DNA from: Candidatus Iainarchaeum sp. | Lineage (GTDB): Archaea > Iainarchaeota > Iainarchaeia > Iainarchaeales > CSSED10-239 | Direction: 5' to 3' | Assembly (NCBI GenBank): GCA_037441475.1 | Contig: JBBISB010000002.1 | Span: 66,020 to 98,019 of the forward strand | Length of the DNA: 32,000 bases | In this document: positions 31,688 through 32,000 of the stretch, piece after piece | Position numbering within the stretch: position 1 is the stretch's first letter | Layout: the number at the start of each line of letters is the position of its first letter | Made by a program: the position numbers and the translations under genes | The notes under the pieces: generated by a model | What the model was told of the DNA's origin: nothing | Seen by the model: only the letters and a program-made list of their open reading frames with translations | Databases searched by the model: none

Positions 31688-31740
31688 CAAGATGTCCGCT
31701 GGACATCTTGTTCATTTAAAACGAGCATACTGCTCGTTTT
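31688..31740 (-). terminator. Two tandem perfect hairpins (10-bp stems, 3-nt loops) directly downstream of the right-edge ORF
   Basis: Hairpin 1 is caagatgtcc-gct-ggacatcttg (31688..31710). Hairpin 2 is aaaacgagca-tac-tgctcgtttt (31718..31740). On the minus strand hairpin 2 begins 10 nt after the TAA at 31753..31751 and ends in TTTT. Confidence 0.5.
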
Positions 31741-31750
31741 AAACGTGTGG

Positions 31751-32000
31751 TTAATGGTCGCGAACACAACGTACCTTAAGATAATCTTCTAAATAATCTG
31801 CATAAATTAAAACCTCCCCATTTGGATCAAAACGATATATTAATGAACTATTAAATTCATCACTTGTCCAATACGGTTCCAATCCACTAACTAAATTACT
31901 CCAACCAGTTATTTTATTTTGAATATTACTGTTCATGCAGGCAGCTGATTTTTCTTGAAGAGGACAAGCTTCCCAAATTGACATCAGCTGAGATGCACTT
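31751..32000 (-). CDS. C-terminal part of a DUF1566 / C-type-lectin-fold-like protein. The 5' end lies beyond the right edge.
   Basis: The frame is open to the window edge (SASQLMSIWEACPLQ...). The C-terminus PYWTSDEFNSSLIYRFDPNGEVLIYADYLEDYLKVRCVRDH* shows the YW[ST]S ... VRCVR ending typical of DUF1566/Lcl-C-like and related lectin-fold domains. Confidence 0.65.
   Translation of the reverse strand, partial: SASQLMSIWEACPLQEKSAACMNSNIQNKITGWSNLVSGLEPYWTSDEFNSSLIYRFDPNGEVLIYADYLEDYLKVRCVRDH

Follow-up and report, generated by a model that had tools for sequence, protein, structure and literature searches.

A probable orphan target site of a diversity-generating retroelement, with its putative recognition module intact, at the end of an archaeal DUF1566 gene

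Can the target site of a diversity-generating retroelement (DGR) be recognised from the end of a gene, and does such an end show whether the target is still being rewritten? This question is raised by the stretch of 32,000 nucleotides analysed here (the window), which terminates inside a minus-strand ORF. From its letters alone, the end of this gene was initially annotated as a possible DGR target, in which a variable repeat (VR) at the extreme C-terminus is replaced by copies of a template repeat (TR) made by a reverse transcriptase (RT). To our knowledge, DGRs are the only prokaryotic system for targeted protein hypervariation. Little is understood about the recognition of their targets in trans or about the gain and loss of targets, least of all for DPANN archaea, and the host chromosome of the window is probably of this low-GC, DPANN-type archaeal kind.

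The ORF is truncated by the window edge and 82 of its codons are retained. The translated frame, running from 31999 to 31754 (-), is SASQLMSIWEACPLQEKSAACMNSNIQNKITGWSNLVSGLEPYWTSDEFNSSLIYRFDPNGEVLIYADYLEDYLKVRCVRDH; its tail reads YWTSDEFNSSLIYRFDPNGEVLIYADYLEDYLKVRCVRDH with the C-terminus VRCVRDH*, and the stop codon occupies 31751-31753 (-). The coordinates of the gene end and of the elements that follow it are collected in Table 1.

Table 1. Positions of the features at the end of the window and the evidence for each.
Feature	Position	Strand	Basis
3' end of gene with DUF1566/Lcl_C-type C-terminal domain	31754..32000	-	translation, homologues, structure model of P0001
VR-equivalent block, 30 codons DEFNSSLIYRFDPNGEVLIYADYLEDYLKV	31772..31861	-	position of the VR in relatives; 26% GC
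A-free, G+C-rich VR end and IMH-type tract, CGTTGTGTTCGC-GACCATTAA-CCACA, stop codon inside	31746..31771	-	match to L021
Hairpin 1	31713..31745	-	perfect stem 31715-31743; covariation
Hairpin 2	31688..31710	-	perfect 10-bp stem; AGC loop
Hairpin 3	31636..31662	-	AGC loop; conserved in relatives

On its own, the 82-aa fragment matched no Pfam (E <= 10) or NCBIfam model, and the assignment to a lectin fold therefore rests on homologues. Through these, the early impression that the C-terminus is lectin-fold-like proved correct. The nearest homologue, P0001 (53% identity, E 1.6e-14), carries PF07603 (Lcl_C/DUF1566). A family profile made from three sequences led to 209 Lcl_C proteins, and the full-length relatives score 42-107 bits against PF07603, for which the cut-off is 34.9. 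The truncated fragment aligns with the C-terminal two-thirds of the relatives, including the invariant W and the R-C-V-R motif. An AF2 model of P0001 (pLDDT 85.8) matched the C-terminal domain of Legionella Lcl (8q4e) with an E value of 8e-6 and a TM score of 0.67, and the next structural matches were C-type lectin-like domains, namely snake-venom CTLDs, NKR-P1, LOX-1 and invasin. By homology, the gene end is assigned to the DUF1566/Lcl_C family with a predicted C-type-lectin-like fold. Among DGR targets, DUF1566 represents the 'CLec2 / category d' class (PMC5758913).

The final 21 coding bases, GTACGTTGTGTTCGCGACCAT, have a G+C content of 52%, compared to a window mean of about 28%, and their two Arg codons are CGT and CGC, which bears out the original description of the last codons as G+C-rich. 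Across 25 ORFs of the window, CGN accounts for 5 of 253 Arg codons (2%). Set against this usage, the two codons make the gene end atypical at the level of DNA, beyond its amino-acid content, and they point to a constraint that acts on the DNA.

Related loci were located using the protein itself and DNA patterns that span the VR end and hairpin 2, and about a dozen of them, all metagenome-derived, were compared with the window. Four other loci returned by the pattern scans (L003, L004, L015 and L018) were rejected as chance matches in unrelated G+C-rich bacteria. Five relatives (L005, L007, L010, L016 and L021) are DGR cassettes with the order target-bAvd-TR-RT. L021 contains the target, the bAvd, the TR and the start of the RT, and its VR differs from the TR at 11 of 41 A positions and at none of the 46 non-A positions. 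L010 encodes an Lcl_C target, an RT (RVT_1, E 3e-17) and a bAvd (E 1e-5, which is below the Pfam curated cut-off), with mismatches at 19/47 A versus 3/61 non-A positions; in L005, which also has a bAvd, these counts are 21/44 and 6/64. L007 matches RVT_1 at 3e-16 and bAvd at 4e-9, the latter just under the cut-off, and the TR of L016 fits the VRs of L008 and L012 with 3-4 non-A mismatches. In all five cassettes, the VR consists of the 87-90 nt directly upstream of CGTTGTGT(T/C)CG(C/T), within the homologous C-terminal DUF1566 segment.

The hosts of the family are archaeal: a topoisomerase VI-B gene adjoins L001, L002 is a Candidatus Iainarchaeum MAG, and the targets have archaeal pilin-like N-termini. 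A viral origin was considered and rejected, since IMG/VR contains none of the patterns, be it that of the VR end, of the TR end or of the module. In L005 (~1505-1520), L007, L010, L016 and L021 (~2005-2020), the start of the TR/VR homology is preceded at a distance of about 15 nt by a conserved motif, AAAGATCTTCTA(Y)AAA, which may be a 5' element of the DGR RNA. The DGR RT of L007 (8268-9776 (-), 502 aa) shows a weak C-terminal match to MutS domain I after RVT_1 (E 8e-5, residues 409-489).

The ends of VR and TR differ in a fixed manner. The VR continues as GACC..TAA (...CGCGACC...), and the module starts with this A-free CGTTGTGTTCGC-GACC end. In all five cassettes, the TR continues as CGTTGTGTTCGC-GAACAT-(A/G)AGTTT, i.e., CGCGAACAT(A/G)AG, and runs into the RT ORF; the TR end of the family is CGTTGTGTTCGCGAACAT. 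This difference has the form of an IMH/IMH* pair and is taken as such on sequence grounds. Window positions 31771-31748 are identical to the VR end of L021 over 24 nt. Compared with the L021 module, that of the window is 90.6% identical over 159 nt, and over the first 84 nt the two agree at 83 positions (99%); the identity of the upstream coding sequence is 77%. The proposal that the C-terminus resembles the end of a DGR target is thereby upheld, since the closest relatives are targets that stand beside a TR, a bAvd and an RT, and the IMH tract and the hairpins are conserved.

Downstream of the stop codon, hairpin 1 has a perfect 13-bp stem (arms 31715-27/31731-43; 15 bp if a G-T pair is counted) and the loop GTA. 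In hairpin 2, a perfect stem (arms 31688-97/31701-10) carries a 3-nt AGC loop closed by a C-G pair (CAAGATGTCC-AGC-GGACATCTTG). The initial annotation had described these as two perfect hairpins with 10-bp stems and 3-nt loops, both within 10 nt of the stop. Both are indeed perfect with 3-nt loops, but the stem of the first is longer than claimed, and only the first, at 7 nt, lies that close to the stop, whereas the second begins 40 nt after it. A third hairpin, which falls outside the coordinates of the initial annotation, follows about 90 nt from the stop. It reads AGTCAGGAGTGC-AGC-GCACGACCGACT and has a 4-bp tip with the AGC loop; below this tip, a tandem G-A internal loop leads to an outer stem that is interrupted by a single A-C mismatch. 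Apart from hairpins 1 and 2, the 32 kb contain no perfect hairpin that reaches 9 bp and has G+C in its arms; in block shuffles, 1.8 hairpins of any composition are obtained. As single-stranded DNA, the 146-nt hairpin region folds at z = -6.05 relative to dinucleotide shuffles.

In the relatives, each VR end is likewise followed by three hairpins, of which the sequences vary between subfamilies and the pairing is kept. Hairpin 1 starts at offset 27 from CGTTGTGT in the window and in all relatives; hairpins 2 and 3, both with an AGC loop, lie at offsets of about 58-62 and 95-110, respectively. Watson-Crick pairs fill 121 of the 130 cells of hairpin 1 (10 distinct sequences, with 2-3 pair types at most positions), 49 of the 55 cells of hairpin 2 (three compensatory pairs in RNAalifold) and 87 of the 99 cells of hairpin 3 (several pair types). 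The sequence of hairpin 2 is identical among L002, L010, L013 and L021, and a homologue of hairpin 3 with the AGC loop was found in L001, L005, L006, L007, L010, L011, L012, L016, L017 and L021. With MAFFT/RNAalifold, no hairpin of the module other than hairpin 2 was recovered, since the register of hairpin 1 differs from one subfamily to another, and loop-anchored pair tables were used instead.

When both strands of 91 kb (the window plus 59 kb of related loci) were scanned, C-AGC-G-tipped hairpins with a stem of at least 7 bp were found only 60-110 nt downstream of VR ends. No hairpins follow the TRs in the cassettes of the relatives, where the RT ORF begins instead. The inverted repeats that are present after the VR and missing after the TR are three hairpins of conserved position that covary over 10-12 loci. 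Judged by this covariation, the hairpins are a conserved part of the DGR target site, and they are placed as would be expected for a cis element by which a site is designated the recipient in mutagenic homing. For the DGRs of Bordetella phage and Legionella, an inverted repeat after the IMH is needed for efficient homing (PMC5758913), and by analogy the hairpins described here would have a role in homing as well. Taken together with its homologues, the DUF1566 gene is predicted to encode a surface protein and its end to be a DGR target site. The window keeps the whole putative cis recognition module, comprising the A-free, G+C-rich VR end, the IMH tract and the three hairpins, of which the last two are C-AGC-G-tipped.

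The machinery that would act on this module was looked for in the window. It had been stated from the outset that the window contains no RT, Avd-like gene or TR, and this was confirmed using Pfam on 27 ORFs and an adenine-tolerant TR scan. The Pfam search found no RT or Avd in the 32-kb window, only housekeeping genes (LeuRS, MscS, ABC/FtsX, ZIP, photolyase, DisA and ornithine decarboxylase). No TR was found in the window by a mismatch search, blastn-short or the adenine-tolerant scan, and even the candidate that came closest had, over 117 positions, 28 non-A mismatches. The missing RT and TR say little, however, because remote targets without a nearby RT or TR occur in this DGR family. The VR of L001 fits the TR of L021, from the same metagenome sample, with mismatches at 21/41 A versus 2/46 non-A positions, and the VR of L013 fits the TR of L010, again from the same sample, with 18/47 A versus 3/61 non-A mismatches. 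Around the targets of L013 and L014, no RT or Avd was found within 6-9 kb. Genes of mobile/defence type flank these remote targets (L013 5145-5801; L014 2012-2827 and 4237-5451): L013 encodes an AbiEii toxin, and L014 a KilA-N protein together with a PD-(D/E)XK/Cas4-like nuclease.

The question is then whether the segment upstream of the module behaves as a VR. The initial annotation expected a VR at about 31754-31880 that would match a TR except at adenines, and this part of it failed. The last 18 coding bases (31754-31771) are the invariant IMH, and for the block upstream of them no matching TR exists in the window or among five family TRs. Compared with the TR of L021, the closest one, the block differs at 19 of 40 A and 28 of 46 non-A positions, and the latter value is the level of shuffled sequence; the other family TRs differ from it at 25-31 of about 60 non-A positions, and cognate VR/TR pairs have 0-6 non-A mismatches. 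The fraction of non-A mismatches with the TR of L010 is 0.556, compared to 0.573 +/- 0.063 for the shuffled block. The block is 26% G+C (A 33%, T 41%), and true VRs are 36-62% G+C. Its flanks are 77% and 91% identical to L021, and the 18-nt 5' TR/VR homology of the relatives, ACCGAGTATAGCTCGTCC, is absent from the window. Between heterologous VRs and TRs, the non-A identity tracks the module identity (75-89% at 81-88% module identity; about 66% at 60-65%). With a non-A identity of about 40-55%, the window block is a strong outlier from this trend.

At the protein level, the block keeps part of the scaffold, xE[FY]xSSxxY...NG..V. An exhaustive phmmer search of 1.84 billion representative proteins returned six close relatives, all of which keep the TR-encoded scaffold xEYSSSxAYxxxMxxGxIxxxxKSxNxxVRCVRDH, and it found no protein with a block like that of the window. 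Likewise, no donor for the block was found by tblastn and blastp against all fetched loci and proteins or by the exhaustive phmmer search. NNT codons make up 17 of the 30 codons, but this excess is a weak sign of AAT templating, because the genome-wide NNT fraction is already 41%. The idea of a frozen VR that has since drifted was rejected. Third codon positions, at which the window and L001 are 63% identical, serve as a neutral yardstick, and the non-A identity of the block (about 40-45%) is under this value and far under the module identity. With a divergence that exceeds that of neutral sites in the same gene, simple drift is excluded, and therefore the block was either replaced, or this copy has not been overwritten by family-type cDNA. 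At the level of nucleotide comparison, the block at 31772-31861 is shown not to derive from a family-type TR.

We consider it probable that the window gene end is a DGR target site by descent, that is, an orphan, relic or recombinant of which the VR is no longer templated by a family-type TR. In the relatives, a complex of RT and bAvd copies the adenine-rich TR into cDNA, and this cDNA overwrites the 87-90 nt upstream of the module, at the copy beside the cassette as well as at remote ones. If the DGRs of Bordetella phage and Legionella are a guide, the IMH would determine in which direction transfer proceeds and where it ends on the 3' side, and the hairpins would raise the efficiency of homing. 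In the window copy, the block was probably replaced, or escaped homing, recently enough for the module to remain intact. As there is no trace of a family-type TR and the 5' homology ACCGAGTATAGCTCGTCC is missing, this copy is most likely uncoupled from templated diversification, and we infer that the target is inactive in the window genome. On the other hand, an intact, near-identical module argues that it may still be under selection, which would fit ongoing use, and the base composition of the block would be compatible with an origin from an A+T-rich TR.

A rival reading takes the locus to be an active remote target, with the RT, Avd and TR elsewhere in the genome, the TR strongly diverged toward A+T-rich codons and the block a diversified VR. 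Remote targets are demonstrated in the family by the pairs of L001 with L021 and of L013 with L010, the recognition module is intact and 99% identical to that of an active cassette over 84 nt, the block is of the same length class as true VRs (30 versus 29-30 codons), and the partial protein scaffold xE[FY]xSSxxY...NG is kept. However, the family TRs are conserved, their non-A identity of 66-89% tracking that of the module, and a TR unrelated at the DNA level would be needed beside a near-identical module. The shuffle-level non-A mismatch and the missing 5' homology of the relatives also speak against it. We regard an active remote target as unlikely.

A different role for the module may be envisaged, although we give it only slight credence. 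The three-hairpin C-AGC-G module and the A-free IMH might form a portable docking signal that by itself defines which targets this archaeal DGR family can rewrite, and the window would then show a target in transition. Either the VR was overwritten from a non-TR template, or the copy has just lost, or not yet gained, its coupling to a TR. If this is true, the locus would be a natural snapshot of the recruitment or retirement of a DGR target.

It seems more doubtful still that the hairpins are only 3'-end elements, which terminate or stabilise the transcript, while the G+C-rich end is inherited and nothing DGR-related operates. The module does fill the space between the stop codon, which it adjoins, and a small gene of the same orientation (31236-31442); TTTTAAAT comes after hairpin 1, and RT, Avd and TR were not found in 32 kb. 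In the hairpins, sense-strand G-T wobble is somewhat commoner than A-C (10 versus 5 cells), which is compatible with structure at the RNA level. However, a scan for non-archaeal intrinsic terminators, in which a U-run follows a G+C-rich stem, found no site on the strand of the gene between 31100 and 32000; only four T follow hairpin 1. Such hairpins occur only after VR ends in the window and 59 kb of related loci, and a specific recognition site is indicated by tips conserved as C-AGC-G and by an offset from the IMH that does not vary. A function at the 3' end is nevertheless compatible with the orphan-target reading, in which it would be the residual function of the orphan site. In Rfam 15, the best match within 31450-32000 has an E value of 0.14, far under the gathering score, which only a tRNA-Thr at 16110 reaches. 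A tRNA-like or small RNA identity for the G+C-rich stretch 31630-31690 was rejected, as ARAGORN and Rfam were negative and the stretch is hairpin 3.

Least probable is a target in turnover. Its block would have come from a non-TR template, for instance an mRNA or domain of a DUF1566 paralogue that ends in CGTTGTGTTCG, or through gene conversion with a paralogue that is not diversified, and the locus would, if this were true, record how target sites gain or lose TR coupling. In favour of this reading, the block alone is foreign between two target-like flanks, and L009 offers non-terminal, non-VR DUF1566 domains ending CGTTGTGTTCGTGAT as well as a terminal copy in decay, in which hairpins 2 and 3 have become fused. 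However, no donor was found in the fetched loci or proteins, and the mechanism is speculative.

The probable orphan target site lies in a part of the genome that differs between relatives. In the closest syntenic contig, L019 (ornithine decarboxylase with 89% aa identity and the same small ORF), the DUF1566 gene and the module are missing at the syntenic position, and the gene therefore belongs to the flexible genome. Directly downstream of the module, the window encodes a predicted membrane protein of 68 aa (31236-31442 (-)) with no Pfam match. Near-identical copies of it adjoin ornithine decarboxylase (89-90% aa identity) in L019 and L020, and L006 has a more diverged homologue (1261-1452) downstream of its DGR target module. 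L019, a low-GC relative of the window genome, also contains a G+C-rich element at 4740-4830 (minus-strand reading) with the tandem repeat AAAGCGGCTTCACCCGGAAAG x2, located between an aminoacyl-tRNA synthetase-like gene and a lactamase_B gene.

Other surface-protein genes were noted in passing. L009 (926-3190) encodes a 754-aa protein with a pilin signal and three tandem DUF1566 domains. Its two internal domains end in RCVRDD and keep CGTTGTGTTCGTGAT at a non-terminal position; in the terminal domain, the block is still TR-like but has drifted and hairpins 2 and 3 are fused into one, and this domain therefore looks like a decaying target. In the window itself, two adjacent ORFs of 476 and 80 aa at 26449-28118 (-) overlap by 4 nt. 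The 476-aa ORF starts with TTG and contains Ig-like and CHB_HEX_C domains, the 80-aa ORF contains a signal peptide, and the two may be one split or mis-started surface-protein gene.

Together with its relatives, the window locus defines a compact and testable recognition module, the IMH and three covarying hairpins, two of them with invariant C-AGC-G tips, and this module marks adjacent and remote targets alike. Its intact state beside a segment that is not template-derived offers a natural case in which recognition at the 3' side would be separated from the requirement for 5' homology. For annotation pipelines in which architecture alone decides what is called a target, it also serves as a warning.

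Of the known systems, the DGR of Legionella pneumophila (LdtA) is similar in that its VR is located at the extreme C-terminus of a DUF1566-type surface protein with a C-type lectin fold (Wu et al. 2018, PMC5758913). An IMH at the VR end, followed in Legionella by a homing-promoting inverted repeat (PMC5758913), is a second likeness, and the match between the model of P0001 and the Lcl C-terminal domain is a third. Targets of this Legionella class, 'CLec2 / category d', carry DUF1566, DUF823 or Fib_succ_major motifs (PMC5758913). The window family differs in its archaeal host, as seen from topo VI-B and the pilin-like signal peptides of the relatives, and in having three hairpins instead of one, two with the conserved C-AGC-G tip; the block of the window, in addition, is not TR-like.

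The Bordetella phage BPP-1 element (mtd-avd-TR-brt) resembles the cassettes of the relatives in its gene order, target-avd-TR-RT, and in the adenine-specific differences between VR and TR. Other shared features are a G+C-rich, A-free start of the IMH, a few fixed differences between IMH and IMH* (GACC versus GAAC in the window family), and a structured inverted repeat after the VR with none after the TR. In BPP-1, however, the repeat forms only one G+C-rich cruciform, for which a GRNA tetraloop is typical (PMC4372165). The BPP-1 target is of the Mtd fold subclass and the element belongs to a phage, whereas the window family is chromosomal and absent from IMG/VR.

The DGRs of Nanoarchaeota (DUSEL4) and ANMV-1 are archaeal as well and have hairpins with trinucleotide loops after the VR (Paul et al. 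2015, PMC4372165; Handa et al. 2016, PMC5006420), together with fixed IMH/IMH* differences and CLec-fold targets (PMC4372165; PMC5006420). Their hairpins are single, with GRA loops, and lie inside the target ORF (PMC4372165), in contrast to the three non-coding hairpins of the window family, of which hairpins 2 and 3 have AGC loops. Their IMH is TGGGGT and their IMH* TGGAAT, and their targets are AvpA-like rather than DUF1566. In DPANN archaea and CPR bacteria, DGRs reportedly reside in small, low-GC genomes rich in surface proteins, and they are said to have targets of the CLec type, of which one element may have several or remote ones; in all this they resemble the window family. Hairpins after the VR and targets of the DUF1566 type are already known from DGRs; what would be modestly new here is the three-hairpin C-AGC-G module and its persistence, intact, beside a block that is not templated.
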